From Patescibacteria group bacterium (GTDB taxonomy: Bacteria > Bacillota > UBA4882 > JAAYXC01), in contig JBLNBS010000171.1 of assembly GCA_050260175.1 (NCBI GenBank), positions 1-52,187 on the forward strand: a stretch of DNA of 52,187 nucleotides, in the 5' to 3' direction. Shown here one piece after another: positions 520-49,662 of this stretch. The notes under the pieces were generated by a model. The model was not told where the DNA came from, searched no databases, and worked only from the letters and a program-made list of their open reading frames with translations. The translations under genes were made by a program, and so were the position numbers. How positions within the stretch are numbered: the stretch's first letter is position 1; the number at the start of each line of letters is the position of its first letter.

Positions 520-623
520 CTACTATGTGCAAGCCTTCCCTGGCTGCGGGGTAACGGGTTTCCGCTCCCAGGGCCGAGGCCCTTCCACATAGTAGCGCCG
601 GTCTTCAGGCCGGCGTCGGCCTC
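520..623. repeat. REP doublet (REPIN-like) palindrome with one intact GTAG-type REP at 592-615; the other arm is interrupted by the IS110
   Basis: CTACTATGTGCAAG (520-533) is the reverse complement of CTTCCACATAGTAG (582-595) at 13/14 positions, with further imperfect inner pairing. Then GTAG-CGCCGG-TCTTCAGG-CCGGCG follows. Confidence 0.65.
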
Positions 624-3600: not shown

Positions 3601-3735
3601 CAGGATCGATGACTTGCCGCTCCCGGTGGGGCCGAAGATCCCGAAGAGCCCGTCCGCGCCGAGCTTTTCAAAGTCGACGGCCTGGCTGCCGCGGTAGCTG
3701 TTGAGCCCGGAGAATTCCAGCCTGATGGGCTTCAT
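622..3735 (-). CDS. sbcC: SbcC (Rad50-like) nuclease ATPase subunit
   Basis: Walker A GPTGSGKS, long coiled coil with central CPVC zinc hook, LSGGE signature, Walker B FFLDEGFG; overlaps the sbcD stop (ATGA). Confidence 0.96.
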   Translation of the reverse strand: MKPIRLEFSGLNSYRGSQAVDFEKLGADGLFGIFGPTGSGKSSILDAITLALYGSVDRASNNTRGIINQLEKTLDVSFRFELGGEVYLVERRYERKGKDPDTAEAKLARLRRLAPGGENVLAGNPREVNAKIQEILGIGYDEFTRAVILPQGKFDQFLRLKGAERARMLEHLFNLEEYGDELAARVKAVSAKCETELTGIEGEEQGLGDCSEEAVAQAGQALQDKARELGENQAKYNGAEQAFKDAEALRGLYQKKQAALEKRNELERQREAIAGQEARLSAAERAEPLRESIERRRELGDAIKDQTAQLQIAEAKRAEAAKKHEEARVALARAEKESEEEQPVLHKRQAQLQEAVEKDARLRELRQALESKRKEHEAAAKAAGAAERETAAVQEELTGIRTALAPLNESREKLTVDPAEKETIEQALEALRLLEDVEKRLKDASETHNRRRSHVDERWNEIVTAVRERMPDREIAPGEDLEALADSVLSKAAADLEEARVARQRALMVNSASALANELRDGEPCPVCGSHEHPQPARISSEELDRCEAAVKEAQAGYDAAIQWQGRILKLWHDWSNNEPLAREAQTEMEKARLQAMAALAEFESLRGPYDREGLRRRKKDLAEAEKELHALEAKRGDLLTRQDILQERLRDLAGQSQAAKVKETALAGELKNIQTQAEDLDKELAKITGGRDLSILIRETGAALAALQQALDKAKRDEAAARDALGEIDTNIAALKAALQTNQKTLAGIDGRLAAGLKETGYAAADEAEAALLPPAEREAMRREIDNHRKAVAVAENDLQNIEMEINGRPFDEAWFEQVKARRDELAEALKRANEEAILAKNRVEELQAKQGRWRELEERRAQIGKRKALADDLAGLLRGRAFVNFLAQEHLRDMAMDASRELGRLTGQRYALEHTAENDFVIRDDYNGGHRRAVASLSGGEIFLASLALALALSSRIQLRGRYPLGFFFLDEGFGSLDGEKLDKVMSALEKLHDRNRMVGVISHVKEMRERLPRYLEVVGAGEDGGGSEIRATAR

Positions 3736-4988
3736 GCTACCTTACCCCCGGTTGGCTTGGCCTCATCCTGCGCTTCGGCCGGCGGCTCCTGCGCGTTCAC
3801 CATTTCCAGGAAGAACTTGACCAGCTCCTCCGGCGGATCGACGCCGCGCTCCCGCTGGTGGAAGAGCTTAAAGCGGTCGGCCAGTGACATCTCCGAGAGG
3901 CGGCGGTCCTCAGTCTGAGCGGTCAACTCAGGATAGATGGGCCTGATGCCGATGATGCCGGGGTGCAGCTTGCGCAGCTCGATCAGTTCCGCCGCTTCGA
4001 GCGGATGATCCGACTCCACCTCCAGATCCACCCAGGCTTCCTGGTTCCCGGACTCGGCGCACCAGGCGCGCGCCTCCGCCAGGCTACGCGCCCGCCACCG
4101 CTTGAGCGCCCTGCCGGAACTCAGGCCGACAGATCGCACCTGCGCCTCGCCACCCGGGAGGATGTCCGCAATGACAACCTCCTTGCGCTGATCCGCTTCG
4201 GAGAAGCTGTATGACAGGGGCGACCCGGCATAGCGGCAGGCCCGGGGGGCGTTGTGGACCTGCTGTGGCCGGTGGAGGTGGCCGAGCGCGACGTACTGCG
4301 CCTTCGCCGGCAGTGCCAGCGGCGACACAGCCAAGGCTCCACCAAGCTGCCGCTCGGATTCGCTCCCCGCCCCGCCGAGGGCGAATAGGTGCGCCACCAC
4401 TATGTTTACGGCATCAGGCCTAAAGACCCGATCGGCCCCCGCAAAGAGCCGGCCGACCCGGTCTGAATAGACGAGCTGTTGAGACGCCTCGTCCAGGTCT
4501 TCGGCCAAGACCTCGTTCAGCCTGGACTCGGATGGATAAGGCAGTGCGTAGATAATGACGGGCTCATCCGCGCCGGAGACGCCAAGCTCCAGCCAGCCCG
4601 GCCCTGCGTTGATCCTGTGCACACCGCCAGCCGCCCCCGGGGGAAGCTGTTCTTTGGGGTAACCAAGCAGGGAGATGCCGTGCTTCAGCGCCAGGGGGTT
4701 CGCCGCGTGCAACCGGTCCGGGCTGTCGTGGTTGCCGGCGATGGCGGCCACGGCCCGTTTCCCCCCGCCGGCCAGCCTCTCGAGGGCGTAGTAAAAAAGC
4801 TCCTCGGCCTCGGCGGAGGGGTTGAACTGGTCGAAGACATCACCGGCCACAAGGACGAGATGGACATCTTCCCTGGTAACGATCTCAACCAGCTCATCAA
4901 TGAACTGCGCCTGTTCGGGCAGCCTTGACCTGCCCTCCAGGTTGCGGCCGAGGTGCCAGTCGGATGTGTGCAGGAGCCGCAAGACCAA
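3732..4988 (-). CDS. sbcD: SbcD (Mre11-like) nuclease subunit
   Basis: Metallophosphoesterase motifs HTSDWH, GDVFD, GNHD, GHLH and YAGSP..YSFSE; RBS GAGGAGG. Confidence 0.96.
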   Translation of the reverse strand: MVLRLLHTSDWHLGRNLEGRSRLPEQAQFIDELVEIVTREDVHLVLVAGDVFDQFNPSAEAEELFYYALERLAGGGKRAVAAIAGNHDSPDRLHAANPLALKHGISLLGYPKEQLPPGAAGGVHRINAGPGWLELGVSGADEPVIIYALPYPSESRLNEVLAEDLDEASQQLVYSDRVGRLFAGADRVFRPDAVNIVVAHLFALGGAGSESERQLGGALAVSPLALPAKAQYVALGHLHRPQQVHNAPRACRYAGSPLSYSFSEADQRKEVVIADILPGGEAQVRSVGLSSGRALKRWRARSLAEARAWCAESGNQEAWVDLEVESDHPLEAAELIELRKLHPGIIGIRPIYPELTAQTEDRRLSEMSLADRFKLFHQRERGVDPPEELVKFFLEMVNAQEPPAEAQDEAKPTGGKVA

Positions 4989-5425: not shown

Positions 5426-6814
5426 TTACTCCTTGACCACCGTCAACCCCCCGACCACCGCCTCGTTCAGGAACCTGTCGTAGGCGGCTACCTCCACCTC
5501 GTGCTTGCCGGCTTTGTAGCCTTTTAAATCCACGGCGATCTCCGCGAAGCCCTCCCGGTAGAACCCGGCCAGGCGGCCGTCGATGTAGACCTCGACCCGG
5601 ACCGTATCCTTGCCCGCCTCGAGGGAGAGGAAACACTGGCCGGCCTGGACCTTGGCCCCCGTCACCTTGAGCGTTGGCGGCTCGCTGTCGGAGAACTGCT
5701 GCCCGCCCGCCCCCGGGCGCCTGCCCTCGAAACGCTTGCGCACCGCCCTTACCTTGCTCCCCGCGATGAGGATGTTGGCCGGGTCGGTGTTGCCCACGCC
5801 GTCGGCGCCCAGGTACTGCAGGTATTTCACACTCTGCGGATCCCAGCCCATGACGAGGGCCTCGATGACATCCAGCGCCACCGGGTCCTTGCTCGCCAGG
5901 ATGATGCGCATGTTCATGCACTGCGCGCTGTAGTCCCGGCTGCCATAATTAGAGTTCGGCGTGGGGCCGCGCTGGATGCCGACCAGCCCGTCCATGACGG
6001 CGAATTTGGCCGGCTTGCAGCGGTAAAAGTCGCTCATGAAGGCGTGGTATTCCATGTTGCCGTGGGGGATCTTGGGCCAGCGCAGGGTGTCGGCCGGGCC
6101 GCCGCCGTAGATGTTGGCGGGCGTGGCGCCGATGGCGAGATTCTTGACGGCGCCGGTCACCGCCGCGTCCCAGTGCGTCTTGAGCGTGGGCACGCTGATG
6201 ACCACGTCCGCCTCGTAATACCGCCGGTTGAGGTAGTACTCGCTCTCGTACCTGCCGTCCGGCAGCTCGACCCGGACCAGGCGGGGCGAGTCTTTTTCCT
6301 GCCAGCCGCCGCTGTCGGACTCGATTGGGATGATGGCGTCGACAAAGGGGAGGTTCTCGGCGGTGTAGCCGTAATGGCTGAACGCCTCCGCCGTCGGTAC
6401 GGCCGAGCCCTCCATGACGTAGATCTTGGCCGCCCCGGCCTCGTGCGCCAGCTCGGCCACGGCCCGGACCACGCGGCGATCCGTGGCCACGCCGCCGAGC
6501 AACTCGGGGAGGGGATGGCGCTTGCCGATAAAATCGGCGATCTCCACCAGGTTCGGCTTGATCACCACCACGTCGCCGGGCTTGACCACCGATGCCAAGC
6601 CGCCGGCCAGGTCCACCGCCTGCCGGACCAGGTCCCGGATCTCGCCGTCGGTGATGCTGTAGATGGAATCCCCTTGGTACCGGGTGATGGCCACGGTCGA
6701 GGGCGGCAAGGAGACCTTGCCCGCCGCGGTGCCCAATCCCTGCCAGAGCGAGGCGACGGCCATCGCACCCACGAGGATGAAGAGTACCCAGCGCTTCCAG
6801 GCCTTCATACACAT
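5426..6814 (-). CDS. DUF362 domain protein with signal peptide and C-terminal Ig-like domain
   Basis: Hydrophobic N-terminus; DUF362-type motifs VVIKPNLV, ADVVISVPTLKTH, TGAVKN and ILASKDPVALD; C-terminal PPT..VEVYIDG..G.H.VEVAAYD beta-sandwich pattern. Confidence 0.8.
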   Translation of the reverse strand: MCMKAWKRWVLFILVGAMAVASLWQGLGTAAGKVSLPPSTVAITRYQGDSIYSITDGEIRDLVRQAVDLAGGLASVVKPGDVVVIKPNLVEIADFIGKRHPLPELLGGVATDRRVVRAVAELAHEAGAAKIYVMEGSAVPTAEAFSHYGYTAENLPFVDAIIPIESDSGGWQEKDSPRLVRVELPDGRYESEYYLNRRYYEADVVISVPTLKTHWDAAVTGAVKNLAIGATPANIYGGGPADTLRWPKIPHGNMEYHAFMSDFYRCKPAKFAVMDGLVGIQRGPTPNSNYGSRDYSAQCMNMRIILASKDPVALDVIEALVMGWDPQSVKYLQYLGADGVGNTDPANILIAGSKVRAVRKRFEGRRPGAGGQQFSDSEPPTLKVTGAKVQAGQCFLSLEAGKDTVRVEVYIDGRLAGFYREGFAEIAVDLKGYKAGKHEVEVAAYDRFLNEAVVGGLTVVKE

Positions 6815-7117: not shown

Positions 7118-7990
7118 TCAGGCGTGTGGGGCGGGGAGCGCCTCCCCGGCGTGAAAGGAGCTCCTGACCAGGGGGCCGGCGGCCACGTGGGCGAAGCCCA
7201 TGGCGCGAGCGCGCGCGGCCAGGGCGTCGAAACGCTCCGGCGGCACGTACTCCGCCACCGGCAGGTGCGCGCGGGTGGGCCGCAGGTACTGGCCGACGGT
7301 GACCATGTCGCAACCTGCCGCGCGGAGGTCGGCCAGGGTTTGCAGGACCTCCTCCTCCGTCTCACCCAGGCCCAACATGAGGCCGGACTTGGTCATGGCG
7401 TGCGGATTCATCTCCTTGACCGCGGAAAGGAGCCAAAGCGAGCGCGCGTAATCCGCCCCAGGCCTCACCTCCGCGTAGAGCCGGGGCACGGTCTCCACGT
7501 TGTGATTGAACACGTCCGGCCCCGCATGGGCTACGGTGGCCGCTGCCTCGCGGGAACCGCGGAAATCGGGCGTGAGCACCTCGATCGTCACCGGCGGACG
7601 CACGGCCCGGAGCGCCGCGATCACGGCGGCGAACTGGCCGGCGCCGCCGTCCGGCAGGTCGTCTCGGGTGACCGAGGTCACGACGGCGTGGCGCAGGCCC
7701 ATCTCGCCCGCCGCGGCCGCCAGCCGTCCGGGTTCTTCGGGATCCACCGGCTCCGGCCCGCCGTGCTCGACGGCGCAAAAGCGGCAGTCACGCGTGCAGT
7801 ACCGGCCGAGGATCATAAAGGCGGCCGTCCCCTCGGCAAAACACTGCCCGAGATTGGGGCAGGCCGCGCCCTGGCAGACGGTGTGGAGGTTATGGCGTTG
7901 CAGGATGCCCCGGACGGCCCCGGTCCCGGCGTTTAGCGGCGAGCGGGCGCGGATCCAGGCAGGCAGGCGCGGTGGCAGCTGTTGCGACAT
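7118..7990 (-). CDS. lipA: Lipoyl synthase
   Basis: CX4CX5C ([12 protein letters not shown]), radical SAM CX3CX2C (CTRDCRFC), [20 protein letters not shown]. Start moved to ATG 7990 (GAGGG RBS). Confidence 0.96.
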
Positions 7991-8025
7991 TACAAATACC
8001 CTCTTGTATTTCCGCAATCCATCCA

Positions 8026-8046
8026 CGGATGGAACCGTTCCATCCG
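8026..8046. promoter_or_regulatory. Perfect 21-bp palindrome between lipB and lipA (possible operator or hairpin)
   Basis: CGGATGGAAC-C-GTTCCATCCG: 10-bp arms with a 1-nt centre. Confidence 0.4.
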
Positions 8047-8139
8047 GTCTCAGGGCCATTCATGGCGTCGTCGGCAGAAAACACGGTTTATCGCATTGCT
8101 TTTGACGAGTGACGAGCGGCCAGCTGCGCACTCACCCCG

Positions 8140-8811
8140 TCACACTTCCTGTACCATCTCCAGGCCGAAGACCCCCCCGAATTCTTCCACCACCAGCGGT
8201 TCGACCTCTGCCCTGGAGACAGGGCGTCCGAGCAGCCTGGCGAGGGAGGTCACACCCTTGTCCCTGATGCCGCAGGGATGGATCAGCCGGAAATGATCGA
8301 GATTCGGCTCCAGATTGAGGGCGAAACCGTGGCAGGTGACCCAGGCCTTGACCGCGACGCCGATGGCCATGACCTTTTCCTCGCCCGCCCAGACCCCTGT
8401 GTGGCGCGCATCGCGTCCGCCGGTAAGCCCCAGGCGGGCCAAGACGCGCAGGCCGACCTCCTCGTAGCGGCGGAGTAACGCGTGGAGGTCCCGGCCGTGC
8501 CGCCGGAGGTCCAGGATGGGGTAGCCCACGAGTTGGCCGGGGCCGTGGTAGGTGATGTCGCCGCCCCGCTCGGTCTCGAAGAGCTCGATGCCCAGGCGCG
8601 CCAGCGAATCCTCGGCCACGAGCAGGTTGCCGCGGCCCCCGCCGCGCCCTATGGTCAGGACCGGCGTGTGCTCGAGGAGGAGGAGCCTGTCCTCCCCGCC
8701 CGCCACCACCTCCCCATGCACGCGCCGCTGCAGATCGAGCCCCTGGGCGTAGGGTACGCGGCCCAGGGCGCGCCAGCGGCAGACGGGCCCGGCCTCAGAC
8801 ATGGATGGCAA
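8140..8811 (-). CDS. lipB: Lipoyl(octanoyl) transferase
   Basis: LLLEH.PV.T.G, RGGDITYHGPGQLVGYPI, HGFALN and PCG motifs. Confidence 0.95.
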   Translation of the reverse strand: MPSMSEAGPVCRWRALGRVPYAQGLDLQRRVHGEVVAGGEDRLLLLEHTPVLTIGRGGGRGNLLVAEDSLARLGIELFETERGGDITYHGPGQLVGYPILDLRRHGRDLHALLRRYEEVGLRVLARLGLTGGRDARHTGVWAGEEKVMAIGVAVKAWVTCHGFALNLEPNLDHFRLIHPCGIRDKGVTSLARLLGRPVSRAEVEPLVVEEFGGVFGLEMVQEV

Positions 8812-10180
8812 GCCCCCGGACGGCCAGAGCGGCTTCCATCATCGTCTCGGCCAAGGTGGGATGGGCGTGGATGGTCTCGGCCAGATCCTCGGCGGTCAGC
8901 TCGTTGCGCACGGCCACGGTGGCCTCGGCCGCCAGGTCGGACGCATGGGCGCCGATGATATGCACGCCCAGAATGCGCCCGCTCTCGGCCTCGGCGACGA
9001 TCTTGACCCAACCCTCGCTCTCGCCCATGGCCAGGGCCTTGCCGTTCGCCAGATAAGGGAACCTCCCCGTCCTGATTTCCATGCCGCGCTTGGTGGCCTC
9101 CTCCGCCGTGAGGCCAACCGACGCCACCTCGGGATCGGTGAAGACGCAGTTCGGTACGGCGGCGTCGTCATAGGTCTGGCCCGGTCCATATAGGCTCTCG
9201 ACCACGGCCAGGGCTTGGTGGGAGGCGGCGTGCGCCAGGTCGTAGGGCATATCGTTGATGTCACCGATGGCGTAGATCCCGGGAACCGTCGTCTCCAGCC
9301 CGCGGCCGACGGGTATGCGGCCTCGTTGATCGGTCCGCAGTCCCGCGCGGTCGAGATCCAGGCGGTCAGCGGCGGTCCGCCGGCCGATGGCCACCAGCAC
9401 CCGATCGACCGCGATCTCTCCCGAGGGCAGCCGCAGATGGACACCGTCGGCCTGGCGCCGGATCTCCTCAACTGACTGCCCCACGAGGACCTTGATGCCG
9501 CGTTTCCTGAAGACCCCACCAAGGGCCCGGCCGAGCTCTGGATCGAGGGACGGCAGCAAGCCGGGGAGCATTTCGACCACGGTCACTTCCGCTCCCAGTG
9601 CGGCATAGATCGAAGCGAACTCGCAGCCTATCACCCCGCCGCCGACTATAGCCAGGCGCGGCGGGATCTCCTCCAGATCGAGCGCCTCGTCGCTGGTCAT
9701 GACCGTCCGTCCGTCGTGGCCGAAGGCGGAAGGCACCATGGGTTCGGTGCCCGCGGCGATGATAATCCTCTCCGCCTCCAGGCGCAGTTCGCCCTCGACT
9801 CGGGCGACCGCGAGTTCGCGGGGGCCGATAAAGCGGGCTTCGCCCTGGATCAGCTGCACATGATTCTTGGCCAGTAAGTATTGAATGCCCCCCACCAGCC
9901 GCTTGACCACGGCGTTCTTACGGGCGATGATCCCCGCCATATCTGGCCGCACCGCGCCCGCCACCAGTCCAAACTCGGTGGCGCGCCGCATCCTGCTGTA
10001 GAGCTCGGCCGAGGTCGCCAGGGTCTTGGTGGGGATGCAGCCCCTGTTCAGACAGACTCCGCCCACCCGGTCCTTTTCGATCAGAGCGACCTCCGCTCCT
10101 CTCTGGGCCGCCCTAATGGCAGCCACGTATCCCCCGGGACCCGCGCCGACGATCGCCAACCGCACCTTTGCTCTATCCAT
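8795..10180 (-). CDS. lpdA: Dihydrolipoyl dehydrogenase (E3)
   Basis: GAGPGG FAD site, GGVCLNRGCIPTK disulfide, GGGVIG NAD site, HAHPTLAE. Confidence 0.96.
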   Translation of the reverse strand: MDRAKVRLAIVGAGPGGYVAAIRAAQRGAEVALIEKDRVGGVCLNRGCIPTKTLATSAELYSRMRRATEFGLVAGAVRPDMAGIIARKNAVVKRLVGGIQYLLAKNHVQLIQGEARFIGPRELAVARVEGELRLEAERIIIAAGTEPMVPSAFGHDGRTVMTSDEALDLEEIPPRLAIVGGGVIGCEFASIYAALGAEVTVVEMLPGLLPSLDPELGRALGGVFRKRGIKVLVGQSVEEIRRQADGVHLRLPSGEIAVDRVLVAIGRRTAADRLDLDRAGLRTDQRGRIPVGRGLETTVPGIYAIGDINDMPYDLAHAASHQALAVVESLYGPGQTYDDAAVPNCVFTDPEVASVGLTAEEATKRGMEIRTGRFPYLANGKALAMGESEGWVKIVAEAESGRILGVHIIGAHASDLAAEATVAVRNELTAEDLAETIHAHPTLAETMMEAALAVRGLAIHV

Positions 10181-10259
10181 GGATGCGCCACCTCGCTATG
10201 GGCAATTGCGCCATTGATTCCGGTGATGCCGGCCGGCCTTGGACCGGCCGGGTGAAGCC

Positions 10260-11492
10260 CTACGGCATGACCAACCGGTGTGGGGCCGCCAATAGGGAAC
10301 TGAGCCTGGCCAGGAAGCGCGCGCCAGTGACCCCGTCGATGGCCCGATGATCGCAGCTCAGGGTCATGGCTAGCGACTGCCGGACGGCGAAACCGGCGCC
10401 CTGAGCCGTCACGCACGGCATCACCCGACCCACGGCCAGGATCGCCACCTCGGGCGGGTTGATGATGGCGGAAAACTCATCGACTCCATACATGCCGAGG
10501 TTGCTTACGGTAAAGGTCCCGCCACTGCACTCGTCCGGCGAGAGCCGTCCGCCCTTGGCCCGCTCCACGAGATCCCGAACCCGGCGGGACAGGGCGAAGA
10601 GATCGAGCCGTTCCGCCCCACGGATCACCGGGACGATCAGGCCGTCCTCCAACGCCACCGCCACGCCCAGATCGATGGAGGAATGGAGGACCAGTTCGTT
10701 GCCGTCCAGAGCCGCGTTCAGCTCGGGAAACTCCTGCAGAGCCAGGACGCACGCCCGCAGGATGAGGTCGGTGACGGAGAGATCGCTCCGGCCTTCGCCG
10801 CCCCTCCGCTCCGCGTTGAGATCCGCCCTCATGTTCATGAGATCCGTCGCATCAGCCGTGGCTTTGAGGTAAAAATGGGGTATGGTCGTGAAGCTCTCGG
10901 TCAACCGGCGGGCGATGATCTGCCGCATGCGCGAGAGCGGCACGCGTCGTTCCCCGCCTCCGGAGGACGGGGCCGGCGCGGTGGCCCGCGAGGCTCCGCA
11001 CTGCACGCGGGCCTCCACGTCCGCCGCGATCACCCTGCCGCCGGGACCGCTACCCGCGATCTCCCGAGGGTCCAGGCCGGCCTCGCGGGCAAGGCGCCGC
11101 GCGCGCGGTGAGATGAGGACGCGTTCCCCCTCTTTCACCCCGGGGTTCGCGGGCGGGGCTGCCGTCGAGACTGCGCCAGGCTCTGGTTCGGATGGCTTCC
11201 CCTCCGCGTTCGGCGGCGGGCTCGACGGCGCGGTCGCGGCGGGCATCTCCTCGCCCTCCGCGCCGACATAGGCAACTGGCGTCAGGACGGGAACGGTCTG
11301 ATCGGGCGGCACCAGGATCTTGAGCAACACTCCCTCGGCCGGCGATTCATACTCGATATTGACCTTGTCCGTCTGCACCTCGAATATGGGCTGTCCGCGC
11401 ACGATCCGGTCGCCCTCCTTGACCAACCAGCGCGTAATCAGACCCTCCTCCATGGTCTCGCCCAGCTTGGGAAGCTTAATCTCCGTCGCCAT
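10260..11492 (-). CDS. Dihydrolipoamide acyltransferase (E2)
   Basis: Lipoyl domain (TDKV), E3-binding domain (ISPRARRLA..GSGPGGRV), catalytic DHRAIDG; start taken at MATEIKLPK. Confidence 0.94.
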   Translation of the reverse strand: MATEIKLPKLGETMEEGLITRWLVKEGDRIVRGQPIFEVQTDKVNIEYESPAEGVLLKILVPPDQTVPVLTPVAYVGAEGEEMPAATAPSSPPPNAEGKPSEPEPGAVSTAAPPANPGVKEGERVLISPRARRLAREAGLDPREIAGSGPGGRVIAADVEARVQCGASRATAPAPSSGGGERRVPLSRMRQIIARRLTESFTTIPHFYLKATADATDLMNMRADLNAERRGGEGRSDLSVTDLILRACVLALQEFPELNAALDGNELVLHSSIDLGVAVALEDGLIVPVIRGAERLDLFALSRRVRDLVERAKGGRLSPDECSGGTFTVSNLGMYGVDEFSAIINPPEVAILAVGRVMPCVTAQGAGFAVRQSLAMTLSCDHRAIDGVTGARFLARLSSLLAAPHRLVMP

Positions 11493-11532
11493 TCTTTCTC
11501 GTCTCCCCACCTTAGATCCTACCGGGGTCCTT

Positions 11533-12522
11533 CTAGGCCACCTGGTTTCTGGCCAGCGCTCTGGCTGCCGCGGCGATGCGCTGCGGATCTGGCACCGCCA
11601 GCCGTTCCATGGGCTCGCTCATGGGGATGGGCACGTCCGCCGCTGCCACCCTGACCACCGGCGCATCCAAATAGTCGAAGGCCTCGCTCATGACCCTGGC
11701 CGCCACCTCGGCACCGACGCCGCCCGTCAGGCACCCCTCTTCGACCGTGACCAGGCGGCCCGTCTTCCTGATCGACTCGAGGATCGGTTCCATGTCCATA
11801 GGCGCCAGGGTGCGGGGATCGATCACCTCGGCCTCGATGCCCTCCTCCTTGGCCAGGGATTCGGCGGCCTTCAAGGCGAAGAGCAGCATACGGGAATAGG
11901 CCAGAATAGTCACGTCCCTGCCGGGCCTCTTGACCTCGCTTCGGCCCAAGGGGACAAGGTATTCACCCTCAGGCACCTCACCCTTGGCGGAATAGAGCAT
12001 CTTGTGCTCGATGAAAAGCACGGGGTTGTCGTCGCGAATAGAGGCCTTGAGCAGGCCCTTCGCGTCATATGGCGTCCCGGGCATGACCACCTTGAGGCCG
12101 GGAACATGCAGGAACCAGGCCTCGAGGCTCTGCGAATGATGGCCGGCCAGGCAGCGACCGGCACCGCCCTGCGTGCGCAGGACCATGGGCACCGTTGCTT
12201 TGCCTCCGAACATGTACCTGATCTTGGCCGCCTGATTGACGAGTTGGTCCATGGCCAGAGTCAAAAAGTCGACGTACATAATCTCCGCCACCGGACGGAG
12301 GCCGGTCATGGCCGCACCCACAGCGGCCCCGGTGATGACCTGCTCGCTGATGGCCGTGTCGCGGACCCGTTCGTCGCCAAACCGTTCCCAGAGGCCCGTG
12401 GTCACGCCGTAGGCACCTCCGTAGATAGCGACATCCTCCCCCATGATGAAGACACGCTCGTCGCGCTCCATCTCCTCGGCGAGCGCCTCGTTCAGGGCCT
12501 GGCGATAAGTAATCTCGCGCAT
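11533..12522 (-). CDS. Acetoin/2-oxoacid dehydrogenase E1 beta subunit
   Basis: [36 protein letters not shown] motifs; AcoB/PdhB-like. Confidence 0.94.
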
Positions 12523-12625
12523 GCGGCAATCCCCCTGTCAGAATCCTACGTGAGGCGAGGAATCAATGATTAAGGTATAAGGCATCATGCATGGGGCATG
12601 AACCGGCTTGCAACCTCTCATTTTC

Positions 12626-12751
12626 CCTTTCCCCTATTGCCTATTGCCTTTTCCCTTTTCCCTTTTGCCTTTCCCCTTTTCCCTATTGCCTTTCCCCTAT
12701 CGCCTATTGCCTATTGCCTTTCCCCTTTCCCCTTTTCCCTTTTGCCTTTTC
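12626..12751. repeat. Tandem array of 18 in-phase heptamers CCT(A/T)T(T/C)(C/G)
   Basis: Units CCTTTCC, CCTATTG, CCTTTTC, CCTTTTG and CCTATCG counted in register from 12626 to 12751, with degenerate units on each side. Confidence 0.95.
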
Positions 12752-12758
12752 CCTTCTT

Positions 12759-13736
12759 TCAGGCATACAAATCCTCGTATAGCTGCTCTGGCGCGGGATA
12801 GGGACTCTGCCGCGCGAAGGCCGTGGCCTCCTCCACGTCCCTTTTCGCTAAGGCCTCGACCTCAGCCGCCTCGGCTTCGGTGATCACACCGGACGTCACC
12901 AGCCGCCGAGCAAAGGTAGGGATGGGATCGCGCCCCTTCCAGTGGGCCTCCTCCTCTTTGGTCCGATAAACCCGCGGGTCGCTGCGGGAATGTCCGTAGT
13001 AGCGATATGTCTTGCACTCGATAAACGTCGGTCCCCCGCCGTTTCTGGCCCGTTCCGCGGCCCTGGCCACAGCGTCCTTGACCGCCAGGACATCCATGCC
13101 GTCAACGATCTCGCTTGGCATCAGGTAGCCCTTCGCCCGCTCGGCCAGGTCCGTGAGGTTGGTGCAGCGGGAGACGGCGACCGACATGCCGTAAAGATTG
13201 TTCTCGCAGACGAAGACGACCGGCAGCCGCCACGTCGCGGCCATGTTCATCGACTCGTGCGCCGTGCCTTCGTTCGCCGCTCCGTCCCCGAAAAAGCAGA
13301 CCACCACCTGTCCCGAACGCCGCATCTGGGCCGAGAGGGCGGCGCCGACCGCGATGGGGAACCCTCCGCCCACGATGCCGTTGGCGCCCAGGTTACCGGT
13401 ATTCAGATCCGCGAGGTGGAGGCTGCCTCCCTTCCCCTTGCAGCAACCCGTCGTTTTGCCGCAGATCTCGGCCATGAGCTCGGGCAGTTTGCCGCCCTTG
13501 GCGATGGCGTGTCCGTGTCCGCGGTGGGTGCTGGAGATGAGATCGGTCGGTCGGAGGGCCGCGCACGCCCCCACCGCCACCGCCTCCTGGCCCGCGTAAA
13601 GATGAGAGCCGCCCTGGATGTAGTTTTCGGCCAAGAGATCCATGACCGTGGCCTCGAAGAACCTGATCTGGTGCATCTGGCGCAGCATGCGCACCAGTTC
13701 CTCACGGTCCTCCTTGACCAGCAATTCGTCTGCCAT
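12759..13736 (-). CDS. Acetoin/2-oxoacid dehydrogenase E1 alpha subunit (TPP-dependent)
   Basis: HLYAGQEA, THRGHGH, GKGGSLH, TPP motif GDGA...ENN, YRYYGHS; AcoA/PdhA-like. Confidence 0.94.
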   Translation of the reverse strand: MADELLVKEDREELVRMLRQMHQIRFFEATVMDLLAENYIQGGSHLYAGQEAVAVGACAALRPTDLISSTHRGHGHAIAKGGKLPELMAEICGKTTGCCKGKGGSLHLADLNTGNLGANGIVGGGFPIAVGAALSAQMRRSGQVVVCFFGDGAANEGTAHESMNMAATWRLPVVFVCENNLYGMSVAVSRCTNLTDLAERAKGYLMPSEIVDGMDVLAVKDAVARAAERARNGGGPTFIECKTYRYYGHSRSDPRVYRTKEEEAHWKGRDPIPTFARRLVTSGVITEAEAAEVEALAKRDVEEATAFARQSPYPAPEQLYEDLYA

Positions 13737-13750
13737 TACAGTCCCTCCCT

Positions 13751-14851
13751 CTATCTGCCGCCGGAGTCGACGCCCGGAACGAGGCGGCCGGCGCCTTCGC
13801 CCACGTCATCCCCGGGCACGATGATCGTCTTCATACCCTCGCCCCGCTCGCAGCGGCGGATCCCCTCCGCCAGGCCGTCAAGGCCCGCCATCTGTCCGAT
13901 GTATCTGCCCACGCGCACCCGGCTGGAGGCGATCAGACTCAGGGCCATGCGGTTTTGCTCCGCCGTGGAGCCCGATGTGCCGGTCACCGTGAATTCCCCG
14001 TAATGGATCAGGTTGCTGTCGATGGCGATCTCCGAACGGCCCTTGGGCAGGCCGCCGAAGAAATTCACGCTGCCCCTCTTGGCCACCATGCTCAACGCCT
14101 GCACCTGCGCCACAGCGGACGAACAGGCCACGATGACCGCATCGGCCCCCCTGCCGCCCGTTTCCTCCCTCACCCTCGCGATGGGATCCTCATTGACGGC
14201 GTCGATGAGGACATCCGGCGCGGCCAAGGCCTCCGCCTCCCTCAAGCGGGCCGCCGAGGCCTCGGTCGCGATGACCTTCACGGCACCGCGGGCGCGGGCG
14301 AGTTCCACATGAAAGCAGCCCAAAGGACCGGCGCCGATGATCGCCACCGTATCGCCCAGGGAGATCCGGGAAAGCTCCTGGCCATTGATGGCGCAGGCCA
14401 GCGGCTCGGCCAAGGCTCCCTCGGCGAAGGAGACCGCGTCCGGCAAGGGATTGACGATGCCCGCCCTGACTCCGAGAGCCGGCACGGCCATGTACTCGGC
14501 GTAACCGCCATCCCACCTGTAGCCGATGGCCGCCAACGAATCGCACTGGCCCGTGATGCCACGGCGGCAATAATGGCAGGTGCCGCAAGGAACCACCGGG
14601 GCCACGGCGACCCGCTGCCCCACGGATAGCCCCTCCGCCTCGGGCCCGACCTCCACGATGGTCCCCGCCACCTCGTGGCCGATGATGCGCGGCAGATGAA
14701 GCATGCGATGGCCCTTGTGGTAGACCTTCACATCGGTGCCGCATACGGCGCACGCGCCGACCTTGACGATCACCCCGCCGGGCTCGCAGACGGGGTCGGG
14801 CACCATGCCCAGGCGCAGATCCTCGAGATCAACCAGGGTCGCCGCTTTCAT
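13751..14851 (-). CDS. Zinc-dependent alcohol/polyol dehydrogenase (L-iditol 2-dehydrogenase-like MDR)
   Basis: CGTD, GHE, CxxCxxC-x7-C structural Zn site, GAGPLG; start at ATG 14851 after GGAGGAGG. Confidence 0.9.
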   Translation of the reverse strand: MKAATLVDLEDLRLGMVPDPVCEPGGVIVKVGACAVCGTDVKVYHKGHRMLHLPRIIGHEVAGTIVEVGPEAEGLSVGQRVAVAPVVPCGTCHYCRRGITGQCDSLAAIGYRWDGGYAEYMAVPALGVRAGIVNPLPDAVSFAEGALAEPLACAINGQELSRISLGDTVAIIGAGPLGCFHVELARARGAVKVIATEASAARLREAEALAAPDVLIDAVNEDPIARVREETGGRGADAVIVACSSAVAQVQALSMVAKRGSVNFFGGLPKGRSEIAIDSNLIHYGEFTVTGTSGSTAEQNRMALSLIASSRVRVGRYIGQMAGLDGLAEGIRRCERGEGMKTIIVPGDDVGEGAGRLVPGVDSGGR

Positions 14852-14930
14852 GTTCCCCGCCTCCTCCGCTTTCGTAAGCCGTTTTTCCGGAATCGCGCCG
14901 TGTCCCGTGTCAACGCGCGGAGCGGACATC

Positions 14931-16118
14931 TCACGGCGTCGCAGCCGCAGCCGACGTGGCGCGGCGTGCGCTCTCAAACGCGCGATAGTATCGCCTAACC
15001 ATGGCGGTCAACGATTCGGCGGGCGCGAGTCCGCAGATCTCGACCAGGGCGCGTTCGAGCCCCCCGAGGCGAATTGCATCCTGGAGACGCTCGGCCCCCT
15101 TATCTCCGGGCGCCATAAAGCGCAGGCCGGCGGCGATGGCCTTGGCCATGATCCGCGGCGTGCCGCCGTGCTTGACGATGAGCCTGGCCGCGCCGACCAG
15201 GCGGTCGTCGGGCTGAAGCTTGCGCCAGGGATCCCGGCCGACACGGGCGACGGTGTCGCCGAGTGCCCTATCCGCGAAACGCCGGCGCAGATCCGCGGCG
15301 TGATCCAGGACGTCCCGCAGCGGGATCCCATGTTCCAGACTGAGGGCGCGGGCGCTCTCATGCATGCCCGTCTCCACGTCGCGCCGGATGGCGGGATCCG
15401 CCATAGCCTCGCCGATCAGGCGGAAACCCGCGGCGTGGCCGAGATAAGCAGCAATGGCGTGGCCCGCGTTGTGCAGATAGAGCTTGCGCTGGATGTAGTA
15501 GTCAAAAGGCCGACAGGGCAAAAGATGAGCGAGTCTTGGGATGGGGCCGCGAAAGCCATCCGCATCCACCGGCAGCTCGCAATAGGGTTCAGCCCAGACC
15601 CGCAGAGGATCCAGTGCCCGACGCTCGGGCGTGACGAGGGGCACCATCCGTCCGATGGAAGCCTCGACCAGGCCGAGGTTGGCCGAGAGGGAAGCCGGCA
15701 GGTGTTTCTCGACCTCAATACGGAGATAACGCTCGGCGCCGAGCAGATTCTCGCAGATGATCACGTCCAGGGGTCTGCCCGGAGTCAATTCCGCTCTGAG
15801 TAGGCATGCTCTGGCGATGAGAGGCGCCACGCCGGCTAGGGCATTGACTCCCACCGCCGTGGCCGCGAGGTCGGCCTCCGCCAGCTCCCGAACCGCCGCG
15901 GCATCCTCGCAGTCGACGGCCCGCACGCCCTCGACCATGAACTCCTTGTCTCCCGCCTCGGAGACGAGGCTAATGGGATACTTGCGGCATCGATTGAGGG
16001 AGGCCACGAGCTCTCGATTCGCCTCGATGAAGACGAGGTCATAGCCGCTTTCGGCGAATATCTGGCCCAGGAATCCGCGCCCGATATTCCCCGCTCCAAA
16101 GACAACCGCCTTGGGCAA
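14931..16118 (-). CDS. Mannitol-1-phosphate 5-dehydrogenase-like (polyol-phosphate dehydrogenase family)
   Basis: FGAGNIGRGF, IICEN, RKLYLHNAGH, DTVARVGRDP.RKL...DRL; MtlD family, substrate not established. Confidence 0.88.
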   Translation of the reverse strand: MPKAVVFGAGNIGRGFLGQIFAESGYDLVFIEANRELVASLNRCRKYPISLVSEAGDKEFMVEGVRAVDCEDAAAVRELAEADLAATAVGVNALAGVAPLIARACLLRAELTPGRPLDVIICENLLGAERYLRIEVEKHLPASLSANLGLVEASIGRMVPLVTPERRALDPLRVWAEPYCELPVDADGFRGPIPRLAHLLPCRPFDYYIQRKLYLHNAGHAIAAYLGHAAGFRLIGEAMADPAIRRDVETGMHESARALSLEHGIPLRDVLDHAADLRRRFADRALGDTVARVGRDPWRKLQPDDRLVGAARLIVKHGGTPRIMAKAIAAGLRFMAPGDKGAERLQDAIRLGGLERALVEICGLAPAESLTAMVRRYYRAFESARRATSAAAATP

Positions 16119-16138
16119 GAAGACTCAGCCCCTCTTCT

Positions 16139-17305
16139 CTATGCCATCCGCCCGCCCGGTCCCAGCCAGACTCCCGGCCGTCCGCCGCGGCGCCAGCCTT
16201 CTCCAGGACACCACTCCCGCCGGGGATGCGCGGCGGCCATCGCCAATACTTCCTCCCAGGTGCCGAGACCGCTGTACGCGTCCGCCGCCCGCAGGTTCTG
16301 GGCGCCGGCGGTGCATGCCGCGCCGAGCGCCTCCTCGGGCCCCATGCCTCCCAGCACTCCCGTGAGGAAACCGGCGATGGCGCAATCGCCCGCGCCGGTC
16401 GCCGAGACGACCGTGGGGACCTCCAGGGCCTCGGCCCAGATCTCGCGCCGCGCCCAGCCGGGTCCGAGCGAGGGGGCGTCTCCGGTGATGAGATAGATGC
16501 CGCGCCGGCCGCATTTTACCCCCACTACGCCGATGCCCATCTCCAGACAGGAGGCGGCCAGCGACCTCACCCGTTCGACCGGGGCCTCCTCCTCCATCTT
16601 CCGCCCGCTCCGCCGGCTTTCTTCGAGAGACGCCAGAAATCCCCGGAAATCGAGCATTTCGTAGAGCTCTTCATAGCTTGGGAGAAAGATGTCCAGCACG
16701 GGCGCGATGCGCCGCATGATCGCCGGCCAGTCCTCCCTGGCGGCCTCGGAACCGGGATCCATGAATTGCATGTCCAGGGAGGTGATGAGTCCGTGCTCCT
16801 TGGCCCGGGCCAGGATGCGAAACGTCTCTCGCCCCTGTTCCCGGTAGAGGCTCGCCATAAGGGTGGGATAACCGAGGTGCAGGAGGTGGGCCTTGGCCAG
16901 GAGATCGTCGGGAATATCGTCCGCGCAGAACTGCTCGTTGGCTCCGGGATGATGGAGGAAAAAGCGGTCGCTCCCAGGCGGAGCCACGACCACGGAGTAG
17001 GAAGTGGTTAGCCCGGCTCCCTCCCGGATCTCCCCATCCAGACCGAAACGCTGCATGTAGCGCCGGCAGATCAGCCCTAATTCATCGGGGCCCACCTTGG
17101 CCACGGCGGCGATCCGGTTGCCGAACCTGCGCATGGCCAGCCCGGTGTTGGCCACGGCGCCGCCGTTGGCGAAGACCGCCGGACCGACGCGGTGGAGACT
17201 GCCGGGGATGAATCCCTCGCGCGGCGCGTCCCGGTCAAAGAGCGGCGTGATGTCCACGCAGATGTGCCCGGCCACGATGGCCGCAAATATCCTTGGCTCC
17301 TTCAT
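16139..17305 (-). CDS. PfkB-family carbohydrate kinase
   Basis: GGAVANTG..., KVG.D..G, C-terminal SATGAGD anion-hole motif; ATG at 17305 after GAGGAG. Confidence 0.9.
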   Translation of the reverse strand: MKEPRIFAAIVAGHICVDITPLFDRDAPREGFIPGSLHRVGPAVFANGGAVANTGLAMRRFGNRIAAVAKVGPDELGLICRRYMQRFGLDGEIREGAGLTTSYSVVVAPPGSDRFFLHHPGANEQFCADDIPDDLLAKAHLLHLGYPTLMASLYREQGRETFRILARAKEHGLITSLDMQFMDPGSEAAREDWPAIMRRIAPVLDIFLPSYEELYEMLDFRGFLASLEESRRSGRKMEEEAPVERVRSLAASCLEMGIGVVGVKCGRRGIYLITGDAPSLGPGWARREIWAEALEVPTVVSATGAGDCAIAGFLTGVLGGMGPEEALGAACTAGAQNLRAADAYSGLGTWEEVLAMAAAHPRREWCPGEGWRRGGRPGVWLGPGGRMA

Positions 17306-17480
17306 GCCTAGCACTCCTCGGTCGAACGTCCGGCGCTGGCCGGTTCCAAACCGATGTGAAACCCGTCCTTTGCCCCGGGGACAAGCCTCCCGGCTGCGTG
17401 AACGGGGCTTGGATGGGCTTTGAAGCTCGGCCGACAGGGCGTACGGGCGTCCAGTACGGCCTGGGGTTTCAGCCTTGGGA

Positions 17481-18287
17481 TCATGGCGGTGAGGTTTTCG
17501 CGCCTGAGCTCGTCCTCTCCCCTCCGGCTTCGCAGACGATCATCCCGGCGCGGGTCGCCGCCTCGGCCAGATCGGCAGGGAGCGGCGCATCCGTGGCCAT
17601 GGCCTGCACCTCGGCAAAGCCGGCGAAGGTGAAGGGGAAGATGCGCCCGAACTTGCCGGAGTCACAGAGCACCGCCGCGCGCCGGGCCTTGGCGATTACC
17701 GCCCGCTTCAGATCGCACTCCACGGCGTTCAGATTGGTAAAACCGGTATCCACGGCCACGCCGGATGCGCCCATGAACGCCAGGTCGATATGGAGCGACG
17801 CGAGTTGGGAGAGACTCCACTGGCCCGAGAGCGAGAGAGTGGAGGGATTGACCTGGCCTCCCAGGAGCATGACCGCAAGGCTCCTCCTGCGGGCGAGGCG
17901 AAGGGCGATGGCGGGGTCGTTCGTCACGATCAGCCGCTCCTGATCCTCGGGGAGCATGGTAGCAAAGAGATCCAGCGTGGTGCCGGCATCGAGGTAGATG
18001 ACGTGGTGCTCGGGAGTGAGCAGGCGCAATGCCGCCTCTGCGGTCAGCCTCTTGAGCTCGGGCCGCTCCGAGCGGCGGAGGAGGATGTCGTCCGCGGCCG
18101 TGGGCTCGATCAGACGCACACCGCCGTATGTGCGGATTACCTTGCCCTCCTCCTCCAGGCGATCGAGGTCGCGGCGGAGCGTGGATTCCGAGACGTGCGG
18201 CAGGGCTTCCTTGAGCTCGGCCAGATGAACCTCGGCCCCGTGCCGATGGAGCATGGCCATGATTTGCTCGGAACGCTCATTTTTCAA
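17481..18287 (-). CDS. DeoR/GlpR-family transcriptional regulator
   Basis: VSESTLRRDL HTH, RTYGG, IYLDAGTT, LLGG, CDSGKF. Confidence 0.94.
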   Translation of the reverse strand: MKNERSEQIMAMLHRHGAEVHLAELKEALPHVSESTLRRDLDRLEEEGKVIRTYGGVRLIEPTAADDILLRRSERPELKRLTAEAALRLLTPEHHVIYLDAGTTLDLFATMLPEDQERLIVTNDPAIALRLARRRSLAVMLLGGQVNPSTLSLSGQWSLSQLASLHIDLAFMGASGVAVDTGFTNLNAVECDLKRAVIAKARRAAVLCDSGKFGRIFPFTFAGFAEVQAMATDAPLPADLAEAATRAGMIVCEAGGERTSSGAKTSPP

Positions 18288-18304
18288 CCCAGATCACCAG
18301 GAGA

Positions 18305-18333
18305 ATCATCTCATACTTGCGCGTTTTTGTCAA
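18305..18333 (-). promoter_or_regulatory. SigA-type promoter for the DeoR-led operon, inside the 3' end of the MFS gene
   Basis: TTGACA (18333-18328), 17 nt, GATGAT with upstream TG; flanking ATCATGAT/AATCAT motifs could be an operator. Confidence 0.55.
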
Positions 18334-19540
18334 GATCATGATTGTTTTTTTCAGGCCTTGCCTCACCCCGCTTGGTCCACCGCTGCTTGCGCGGCCCCGC
18401 GGCGGCGAGCAGGATGCCCTCCAATGCCATGGCGGCCAGGATAAAGACGGCGGCTACGGCAAAAGCCGACGCGAGTGTGCCGGCTTGGGCCGCCATGCCG
18501 CCGATAAGCGGGCCAATCAGGGTGCCGAGGCTGAGGACCATCTCGTGATAGCCGCTTTGGCCGCCCCGGTCACTGGCGCCGTTCTGGCCGTAGAACATGC
18601 TGGAAAAGTAGGTCATGCCCGCGCCGAGGCCGAACAGGCCAAAAGCCACGAAGAACACGGTCCGCCCGGGCGAAAGCCACAAGAGGAGCGCCGCTCCGGC
18701 AGCAAGGCCCTGGCAGGCCAGGAGCGGATCGGCTCGATAAGCCCAACCGCGCTTGCGGTTCATCGCGGCCACCGTCATGAACCAGCAGACATAGAGTGTG
18801 GCATTGACGGCGCCGACGGCCTGGCCCGGCAGACCCGCCGCCAGGCTCAGCTTTGGAAAGATGAAGCGCAGGATGCCGATGGTCACCCAGGTCGCAAAGT
18901 TGGCTATTCGGCTCAGCGCGACAAAGAGCAGGCGGTCGCGTCCATCGGGGCCGAGGCTCCGCCCGTCTCGCGCGGCATGGTGCGGCGCGGTTGCAGCGCC
19001 GCTCTTGTCTGGCGTCGCGGCAATGAGGGCGCCGACCACCGCTGCGCAGACGCAGCCGAGGATGACGGCAGGCGCCACGTCCAGCCTGGCAAAGAGACCG
19101 CCCAGGAGGCAGCCTGCCGCCAGGCCGGCGGTGATGGCCATGCCGAAACGTCCGAGATGCCGCAGGAGATCCTCGTTCTCGGAATCCAGGCCCGTCCAGG
19201 CCTCGATCAGGGGCCAAAAAACGGCGTTGGCCGTCCCACTGAGGAAAAAGGCCAAAAAGATGGGGATGATGCCGGAGTGGCCGAGCGTGATAAAGGCCGC
19301 CGCCTTCAGGCAGCAGGCGGCCAGGATAGGCCTGCGGCGGCCCACTCTGTCCGAGAGCCGGCCAAAAAGCGGATTCCCGATCACCCGCGCCAAAAGATGC
19401 GCCGTGCCCGTGAGCCCCAGCACCAGGGGGCTGTCGATCACCCGGGCCGCCGCCAGGGTAGCCACGATCATGAACAACCCGTAACAGATCTCCATGATCA
19501 GGGCTGCGGCGAAAAGCTTGGTTTGATGCGCTTGGGGCAT
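18311..19540 (-). CDS. MFS transporter
   Basis: About 12 hydrophobic segments; motif A GRLSDRVGRR; G..IGP.IGG. Confidence 0.9.
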   Translation of the reverse strand: MPQAHQTKLFAAALIMEICYGLFMIVATLAAARVIDSPLVLGLTGTAHLLARVIGNPLFGRLSDRVGRRRPILAACCLKAAAFITLGHSGIIPIFLAFFLSGTANAVFWPLIEAWTGLDSENEDLLRHLGRFGMAITAGLAAGCLLGGLFARLDVAPAVILGCVCAAVVGALIAATPDKSGAATAPHHAARDGRSLGPDGRDRLLFVALSRIANFATWVTIGILRFIFPKLSLAAGLPGQAVGAVNATLYVCWFMTVAAMNRKRGWAYRADPLLACQGLAAGAALLLWLSPGRTVFFVAFGLFGLGAGMTYFSSMFYGQNGASDRGGQSGYHEMVLSLGTLIGPLIGGMAAQAGTLASAFAVAAVFILAAMALEGILLAAAGPRKQRWTKRGEARPEKNNHDLDKNAQV

Positions 19541-49608: not shown

Positions 49609-49662
49609 AAGTAACGAGCATCGAGTAGCGCGTAACGAGCAACGAGCAACGAGTAACGAGTA
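49607..49662. repeat. Tandem array of 8 heptamers, consensus ACGAG(C/T)A
   Basis: ACAAGTA ACGAGCA TCGAGTA GCGCGTA ACGAGCA ACGAGCA ACGAGTA ACGAGTA, ending at the sulfatase RBS. Confidence 0.85.

Follow-up and report, generated by a model that had tools for sequence, protein, structure and literature searches.

Conserved linkage of a Zn-dependent dehydrogenase and a mannitol-1-phosphate-5-dehydrogenase-like protein to a lipoamide complex encoded in a Patescibacteria group bacterium

What does a lipoamide-dependent dehydrogenase complex do when its genes lie in a block with genes of polyol and sugar metabolism? This question is raised by contig JBLNBS010000171.1 of a Patescibacteria group bacterium (assembly GCA_050260175.1), of which we analysed a stretch of 52,187 bases (60-73% G+C), hereafter the window, taking genes from open reading frame (ORF) calls and assigning domains by Pfam and NCBIfam profile searches. 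Eleven minus-strand genes, all in the same orientation, span positions 7118-19540 and encode, in order of transcription, an MFS transporter, a DeoR regulator, a PfkB kinase, a mannitol-1-phosphate-5-dehydrogenase-like protein (MtlD-like), a Zn-dependent medium-chain dehydrogenase (ZnDH), the E1 alpha, E1 beta, E2, and E3 subunits of a lipoamide complex, LipB, and LipA. All of them, in the named families, had been called in the original prediction, which further proposed that the complex cleaves a ketose or ketose-phosphate made by the upstream enzymes, and which listed no aldolase, transketolase, acoX, or acoR; indeed, aldolase, transketolase, NAD-kinase-like AcoX, and sigma54 AcoR domains were found neither in the 11 genes nor in the scanned flanks. 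Our data indicate that the block is a functional unit, whose complex belongs to a subgroup of pyruvate dehydrogenase (PDH)-like/Aco-like complexes associated with SorC and DeoR regulators, and we tentatively favour an acetyl-CoA-forming role for it.

Conservation of gene order ties the two halves of the block together. When the 80 loci with the closest E1 alpha (window positions 12759..13736) were compared, the run of MtlD-like (14931..16118), ZnDH (13751..14851), E1 alpha, E1 beta (11533..12522), and E2 (10260..11510) recurred in the window's order in 7, all seven within the top eight (57-60% identity), and the remaining one of these eight has just 513 bases of upstream sequence. Protein identities to these related loci were 35-65%. 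They belong to the sister phylum, an uncultured group with genomes of 0.9-2.7 Mb, and a ZnDH orthologue (45-53% identity) was present in 64 of the 65 genomes of this group. We cut out 30 loci around this orthologue and found E1 alpha and E1 beta directly downstream of it in 29 (the exception has 402 bases on that side), an MtlD-like gene directly upstream in 25, and a spacing between ZnDH and E1 alpha of 10-130 nt in 29 of the 30, as well as in the window. At one locus, L183, E1 alpha has neither E1 beta nor E2 after it. Open frames of 675-679 aa in three sister-phylum genomes were considered as ZnDH-E1 alpha fusions and were rejected, since translation revealed an in-frame stop between the two genes.

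The module of the sister phylum is surrounded by housekeeping genes (SurE, YidC, RNase III, ValRS, and TsaE), with no transporter or regulator. A hexapeptide transferase gene directly follows E2 in all six evaluable loci (e.g., L019, 13280-14053; L182, 11942-12667), and the two that were tested were both identified as serine O-acetyltransferase (CysE; TIGR01172 246 and 261 vs a cut-off of 210.65); LysM-NlpC/P60, DUF4432, and GatB genes come after CysE. The module's E2 was the sole E2 in each of four genomes checked, with E3 encoded elsewhere, and POR_N, marking pyruvate:ferredoxin oxidoreductase (PFOR)-type enzymes, was present in 64 of the 65 genomes.

Rearranged versions of the module occur within the window's own phylum. 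The most similar E1 alpha that we found (64% identity) is that of G434, where the order is ABC sugar transporter, ZnDH (45% identity), TIM-barrel isomerase-like protein, class II aldolase, short-chain dehydrogenase/reductase (SDR), SorC, E1 alpha, E1 beta, and E2, while the MtlD-like gene lies on a separate contig. Two further genomes, G058 (locus L128, 3864-11722) and G411 (locus L129, 8222-16389), carry a variant consisting of MFS, a fused E1 alpha/beta (771-773 aa), acetyl-CoA C-acyltransferase (292 vs a cut-off of 240.55 for the G411 protein, which follows E1), a GcvH-like lipoyl carrier (seen in L129), MtlD-like, and ZnDH (41-42% identity). No E2 catalytic domain was detected anywhere in the G058 genome (99% complete), and the thiolase and H-protein may, judging by gene content, stand in for E2. 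The fused E1 departs from many otherwise universal E1 residues. Another relative in the phylum, G201 (1.8 Mb), has six E1_dh matches, at least four of them of the PDH-y/Aco-like type, which hints at substrate diversification in the E1 family.

Counting all of these, ZnDH orthologues (41-53% identity) cluster with the window's E1 clade in four lineages, and this recurrence with changed gene order takes the association beyond chance. The conserved core comprises ZnDH, usually the MtlD-like protein, and the E1 alpha/beta-E2 complex; the kinase, DeoR, MFS, E3, lipB, and lipA genes stand outside it, and three class relatives have E1-E2-E3 without MtlD-like or ZnDH. The expectation that the sugar genes and the complex would be conserved together was therefore borne out in four lineages for ZnDH and usually the MtlD-like gene, but not for the kinase, DeoR, and MFS. 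Such co-conservation indicates functional coupling, the nature of which it does not itself specify.

To place the E1 subunits, trees were built from concatenated E1 alpha/beta sequences, the later one adding 28 loci of the window's phylum. The ZnDH-linked E1s formed one clade, with support of 90 (SH-like, FastTree), 93 (SH-aLRT, IQ-TREE), and 95 when the 28 loci were added. Its neighbours are a poorly resolved group of complexes with SorC-type "sugar-binding" regulators, including three class relatives (two annotated with ABC sugar transporter, RpiB, SorC, E1, E2, lipoyl-E3, and LplA), Brevibacillus (phosphotransferase system (PTS) and SorC), Clostridioides difficile acoRABCL, a Sinorhizobium meliloti plasmid (SorC, oxidoreductase, E1-E3, and lipA), and L024 (SorC, LarA-like protein, and D-2-hydroxyacid dehydrogenase). 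The E1 had been predicted to be AcoAB-like, which in the narrow sense it is not: it falls outside the clades of the sampled clusters whose context defines them as acetoin clusters, namely those of Acinetobacter (acetoin reductase and butanediol dehydrogenase), E. gilvus (AcoR), and, in the window's phylum, all but one of eight loci linked to AcoR. The exception, L194, groups with the SorC-associated complexes and not with the window's clade, and a pdhA-annotated Burkholderia cluster is likewise outside that clade. AcoR-like genes adjoin 8 of the 29 other E1 loci of the window's phylum, and the butanediol dehydrogenase (BDH)-like genes beside classical clusters are 27-32% identical to ZnDH. Lipoylation genes encoded in cis (LplA, LipB, and LipA) recur beside such complexes, as in an Acinetobacter plasmid cluster with the order lipA-E1-E2-E3-acetoin reductase-butanediol dehydrogenase, and the aco operon of Pelobacter carbinolicus has its own lipoate synthase.

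All catalytic motifs of the complex are intact. E1 alpha (Pfam E1_dh, 298.7 bits) has the thiamine diphosphate (ThDP)-binding motif GDG...NN at residues 150-180; E2 combines lipoyl, E3-binding, and catalytic domains and keeps the lipoyl-Lys site (TDKV) and DHRAIDG; and E3 (8795..10180; TIGR01350 524.7 vs a cut-off of 408.8) keeps the CLNRGC redox disulfide and HAHP. E1 beta (Transket_pyr and Transketolase_C) exceeds the cut-off of a PDH E1-beta subfamily (NF006667 419.3 vs 321). LipB (8140..8811; TIGR00214 153.1 vs 83.55) and LipA (7118..8059; TIGR00510 381.2 vs 310.25, with both Cys motifs) exceed their equivalog cut-offs. The best match of E1 alpha in the Protein Data Bank (PDB) was human PDH E1 alpha (245 bits), and its score on the PDH model TIGR03182 lies between those of context-defined acetoin E1 alphas (323.5 and 345.6) and those of PDH-passing proteins (403.4 for L024 and 448.4 for the pdhA-annotated Burkholderia protein). 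Compared with 65 other E1 alpha/beta pairs, the window's E1 alpha and E1 beta keep 73 of 76 and 78 of 81 universal positions, respectively; the three changes in each subunit are all conservative, among them Leu in place of a universal Met at E1 alpha residue 106, and this comparison does not tell substrates apart.

The assembly is 98% complete and has a single gene each for E1_dh, 2-oxoacid_dh E2, E3, lipA, and lipB, all of which are in the block; the other Transket_pyr matches fall on an ORF of DXS size and on a split transketolase. As GcvH and GcvT are encoded outside the block (contigs C48 and C99, respectively), the sole E3, lipB, and lipA must also serve the glycine-cleavage H protein, and the block is thus no private duplicate but everything that the organism has for lipoylation and as E3. 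The complex had been called self-sufficient, a term that needs correcting in this respect. Searches of this 98% complete genome detected three POR_N (PFOR-type) loci but neither COX1/haem-copper oxidase nor cytochrome bd nor citrate synthase, and the host is, on its gene content, most likely an anaerobic fermenter. This anaerobe has only two systems that depend on lipoyl groups, the complex being one of them, and this would be why the sole E3, LipB, and LipA travel with it. An E1 alpha match at E <= 1e-40 was found in 4 of 58 genomes of the class (host included) and in neither of the 2 genomes of the host's own family.

On the polyol side, ZnDH (ADH_N and ADH_zinc_N; threonine/sorbitol/butanediol-dehydrogenase-like) is the gene most tightly linked to E1. 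Its longest ORF extends to 14977, and Met43, which gives 13751-14851, is the probable start because relatives are about 346 aa long. The zinc ligands are intact, and the best PDB matches are archaeal threonine dehydrogenases (150 bits), with (R,R)-butanediol dehydrogenase (6IE0) at 115 bits; the family has more than 2900 relatives, and those at 51% identity or more fall into more than 120 clusters that bear automatic names only. The MtlD-like protein (Mannitol_dh and Mannitol_dh_C) was compared with 23 canonical MtlDs, among which 86 positions are at least 90% conserved, and keeps 63 of these, including K212, N217, H220, and a basic patch of R292/R295/R299/K300/R306. K212/N217/H220 are the putative catalytic residues, and their retention, with that of the Arg/Lys patch, makes a generic polyol-phosphate dehydrogenase activity likely. 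The protein reaches no mannitol-1-phosphate 5-dehydrogenase (M1PDH) equivalog cut-off of NCBIfam (best NF002652, 270.7 vs 356), and in the MtlD-like tree it lies outside canonical MtlD, in a separate 23-row half with PfkB-linked metagenome homologues. E1-linked MtlD-likes are not monophyletic and occupy different branches of the M1PDH tree; that of G058 is in the canonical half and passes the M1PDH equivalog (358.9 vs 356).

The PfkB kinase (16139..17314, 391 aa; Pfam PfkB 86 bits) is a sugar or sugar-phosphate kinase, for which the ESM Atlas returned "carbohydrate kinase" and nothing narrower. The PfkB-MtlD-like pair recurs on two metagenome contigs. A metagenome scan with the MtlD-like protein yielded 15 contigs, mostly short and with no E1 within reach on any; one of them, L141, with 8.7 kb of downstream sequence, indicates that distant MtlD-likes are not always E1-linked. 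Three high-GC metagenome contigs (L134, L143, and L133) have a pair of ZnDH-like (31-36% identity) and MtlD-like genes among housekeeping genes (purL etc.), together with planctomycete-type DUF1559/N_methyl proteins and no E1 within reach. Six full-length kinase orthologues (36-43% identity) were found in class relatives, with glycosidases, class II aldolase, HAD hydrolase, and once lipA as neighbours, and none of the six adjoins E1, MtlD-like, or ZnDH. The lipA case (L001 of G009, 9521-11559; kinase 43% identical) has the two genes overlapping by 4 bases and is another adjacency of a kinase with lipoate synthase.

We tentatively favour the reading that the complex forms acetyl-CoA and NADH, probably out of pyruvate, and that the two dehydrogenases are tied to it by carbon flow and redox balance through a shared NAD(H) pool, with no ketose handed over. 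In the window, hexitol-phosphates and ketose-6-phosphates would be turned into one another by the joint action of the MFS, the PfkB kinase, and the two dehydrogenases, and a sugar-phosphate would release DeoR. Several observations lead us to this preference, including the acetyl-CoA-using neighbours (CysE and thiolase), the near-PDH scores and the conservative scaffold of the E1 active site, the housekeeping genes around the module in the sister phylum, and the fact that the MtlD-like partners are polyphyletic. The circumstantial evidence on the product (CysE after E2, thiolase after E1 in G058/G411, and the near-cut-off E1 alpha) leans towards acetyl-CoA. The original interpretation is supported in part: the pairing of polyol genes with the complex stands, while the specific chemistry from a ketose or ketose-phosphate to glycolyl-CoA found no direct support. 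Other results weigh against an acetyl-CoA-forming, pyruvate-using complex. E1 alpha is borderline, 15 bits short of the PDH equivalog cut-off (TIGR03182 378.4 vs 393.85), and E2 is also below that for PDH acetyltransferase (TIGR01349 365 vs 445). With PFOR-type enzymes in the host and in nearly all sister-phylum genomes, a NAD-linked pyruvate complex is not obviously needed, and pyruvate, like acetoin, represses the aco operon of C. difficile according to a preprint (bioRxiv 10.1101/2023.07.28.551048). The tight spacing of ZnDH and E1 alpha across about 30 genomes would be more typical of consecutive pathway steps, as would the sugar transporters, isomerases, class II aldolase, and SorC/DeoR regulators around relatives in the clade. 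Finally, some genomes of the window's phylum carry 2-6 paralogues of the window's E1 type, which suggests differing substrates.

A rival reading, which broadens the original prediction, we consider possible if doubtful: an alpha-hydroxy-carbonyl would be produced by ZnDH, the MtlD-like enzyme, or both. Candidates are ketoses and their phosphates, deoxy-ketoses, and hydroxyaldehydes, for instance lactaldehyde. The ThDP-dependent E1 would then split or oxidise this compound, its acyl unit would reach CoA by way of lipoamide, and an aldehyde or aldose-phosphate would be set free, in a lipoate-dependent route of sugar cleavage. Such direct coupling is favoured by the distance of 10-130 nt between ZnDH and E1 alpha, seen in the window as in 29 of the 30 sister-phylum loci, and by the association of ZnDH with the E1 clade in four lineages under differing gene orders. 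It is further consistent with the sugar clusters around clade relatives (SorC/DeoR, PTS/ABC/MFS, RpiB, TIM-barrel isomerase, and class II aldolase), with several E1 paralogues per genome, and with a block that has no aldolase. The sources on related complexes point the same way: acetoin does not induce the C. difficile operon and an acoA mutant has unchanged acetoin levels (bioRxiv 10.1101/2023.07.28.551048), and in Caldicellulosiruptor a three-subunit acetoin dehydrogenase homologue in a DeoR-regulated rhamnose cluster is predicted to dispose of L-lactaldehyde (PMC8579813). However, neighbours that use acetyl-CoA are a misfit for glycolyl-CoA, and the near-universal module of the sister phylum, among housekeeping genes and without transporter or regulator, resembles core metabolism rather than niche catabolism. 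The E1-linked MtlD-likes are not one clade, the window's E1 has just three conservative changes per subunit at universal positions, and the cluster holds no enzyme for the fate of glycolyl-CoA or an aldose product. A bolder form of the idea, which we likewise consider possible if doubtful, would have the ZnDH-linked E1 clade act on alpha-hydroxy-carbonyls from sugars as an "oxidative transketolase or acyloin lyase", operating without aldolase in the core metabolism of an entire uncultured phylum, with thiolase and H-protein replacing E2 in G058/G411.

Classical catabolism of 2,3-butanediol and acetoin, in which ZnDH would be the butanediol dehydrogenase, the complex an acetoin dehydrogenase giving acetyl-CoA and acetaldehyde, and the sugar genes bystanders, seems improbable to us. 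Zn-dependent medium-chain butanediol dehydrogenases do exist (the 6IE0 match is one), the Acinetobacter plasmid cluster joins lipA, E1-E2-E3, acetoin reductase, and butanediol dehydrogenase, BDH-like genes adjoin some E1s in the window's phylum, and an acetyl-CoA product would agree with the CysE and thiolase neighbours. Yet E1 stands outside the sampled acetoin clades, neither the cluster nor the scanned flanks contain AcoR or AcoX, ZnDH is closer to threonine dehydrogenases than to butanediol dehydrogenase in its PDB matches and only 27-32% identical to the BDH-like genes of classical clusters, and the conserved MtlD-like gene would be left without a role; a close relative in C. difficile also showed no acetoin phenotype in the preprint (bioRxiv 10.1101/2023.07.28.551048). 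We find chance adjacency of two ordinary operons, one for polyols and the other for a dehydrogenase complex, the most improbable reading of all. The kinase, DeoR, and MFS genes are not kept beside E1 elsewhere, gaps of 166 and 236 nt could divide transcription units, and the three class relatives have the complex without MtlD-like or ZnDH, but chance would have to account for ZnDH-E1 clustering in four lineages with differing orders, for the MtlD-like-ZnDH-E1 alpha-E1 beta run in 25 of 30 sister-phylum loci, and for the linked E1s forming one clade, and protein identities of 35-65% argue against recent transfer of a single fragment.

The remaining features of the block concern its expression and surroundings. 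The MFS transporter (18311..19540; MFS_1 93.8 bits, with no specific NCBIfam model at cut-off) is the first gene, and the DeoR/GlpR-family regulator (17481..18287) has both HTH_DeoR (47.3 bits) and the DeoRC sensor domain (129.8 bits), as in DeoR/GlpR regulators, its best NCBIfam GlpR/AgaR models being below cut-off. Just upstream of the DeoR start, on the minus strand, is a sigma70-like promoter match (18305..18333; TTGACA-17-GATGAT, 10/12, with TG), by consensus only. Intergenic gaps are 14-80 nt except for DeoR-PfkB (166 nt) and E1 alpha-E1 beta (236 nt); no terminator-like hairpin was found in any gap of the block, a DeoR operator search of the two promoter-side gaps returned weak short repeats only, and Rfam had no match within the window. 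The E1 alpha-E1 beta gap, which measures 10-190 nt in relatives, contains a tandem repeat that is purine-rich on the coding strand (12621..12755; Tandem Repeats Finder, periods 7 and 28). With the window's own included, a motif scan detected 13 arrays of this kind in the genome, spread over 7 contigs, and the repeat thus belongs to a genome-wide intergenic family. A further short intergenic tandem repeat at 49610-49662 consists of 7.6 copies of the 7-nt unit AGTAACG. The block is flanked downstream by an SbcC/SbcD nuclease pair (622-4988) and, between this pair and lipA, a DUF362 gene (5426-6814), and upstream by a divergent gene for an SDR and a gene for a GGDEF protein.

Full-text literature searches returned no report of this gene combination, and the locus represents a new, conserved form of a known complex type rather than a proven new pathway. 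Many anaerobes have an "Aco-like" lipoamide complex in addition to PFOR, the substrates of few such complexes have been tested, and the only close relative studied, that of C. difficile, did not act as an acetoin dehydrogenase according to the preprint. The locus defines conserved partners (ZnDH and the M1PDH-like protein) for one E1 clade, a set that is near-universal in an uncultured phylum, and this set leads to a short, concrete list of enzymes and of compounds that may be their substrates. With a sugar-derived carbonyl as substrate, the complex would represent a new way of sugar cleavage; with pyruvate, the module would be a previously unremarked redox-coupled fermentation module.

Compared with known systems, the block shares with the PDH complex of heterotetrameric E1 (TIGR03182 "y" type) the same domain set and E1 beta and E3 scores above cut-offs, but differs in the E1 alpha and E2 scores below equivalog cut-offs, an anaerobic host with PFOR-type enzymes, and embedded polyol-type dehydrogenases. 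AcoABCL of the Bacillus subtilis type (with sigma54 AcoR) likewise combines genes for a ThDP E1 alpha/beta of the heterotetramer type, a lipoyl E2, and an E3, and cis-encoded lipoylation genes are also known from aco-type clusters (Acinetobacter lipA), whereas the window lacks AcoR and AcoX, has an E1 outside the sampled acetoin clades, and links MtlD-like, ZnDH, and DeoR genes to the complex. Nearer is acoRABCL of C. difficile (CD0035-0039), which belongs to the neighbouring SorC/DeoR-associated E1 group (E1 alpha 48% identical) and comes from an anaerobe, with a co-transcribed sugar-phosphate-type regulator and adjoining PTS genes, although the regulator is of the SorC type, not the DeoR/GlpR type, and MtlD-like, ZnDH, kinase, lipB, and lipA genes are missing. 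Athe_0702-4 of Caldicellulosiruptor bescii, in the rhamnose cluster of RhaR2 (DeoR), is alike by the description in its source (PMC8579813): the host is an anaerobe, the Aco-like complex is encoded in a sugar cluster under DeoR control, and its predicted substrate is not acetoin. There, however, the predicted use of L-lactaldehyde is preceded by an aldolase, an enzyme that the window lacks. Hexitol operons (mtl, gat, and srl) share an M1PDH-family enzyme, a Zn polyol(-phosphate) dehydrogenase-like protein, a sugar kinase, DeoR, and a transporter with the block; in contrast to them, the window has MFS instead of PTS, an MtlD-like protein below every M1PDH equivalog cut-off, and neither aldolase nor epimerase, and its polyol-side genes are joined to a lipoamide complex.

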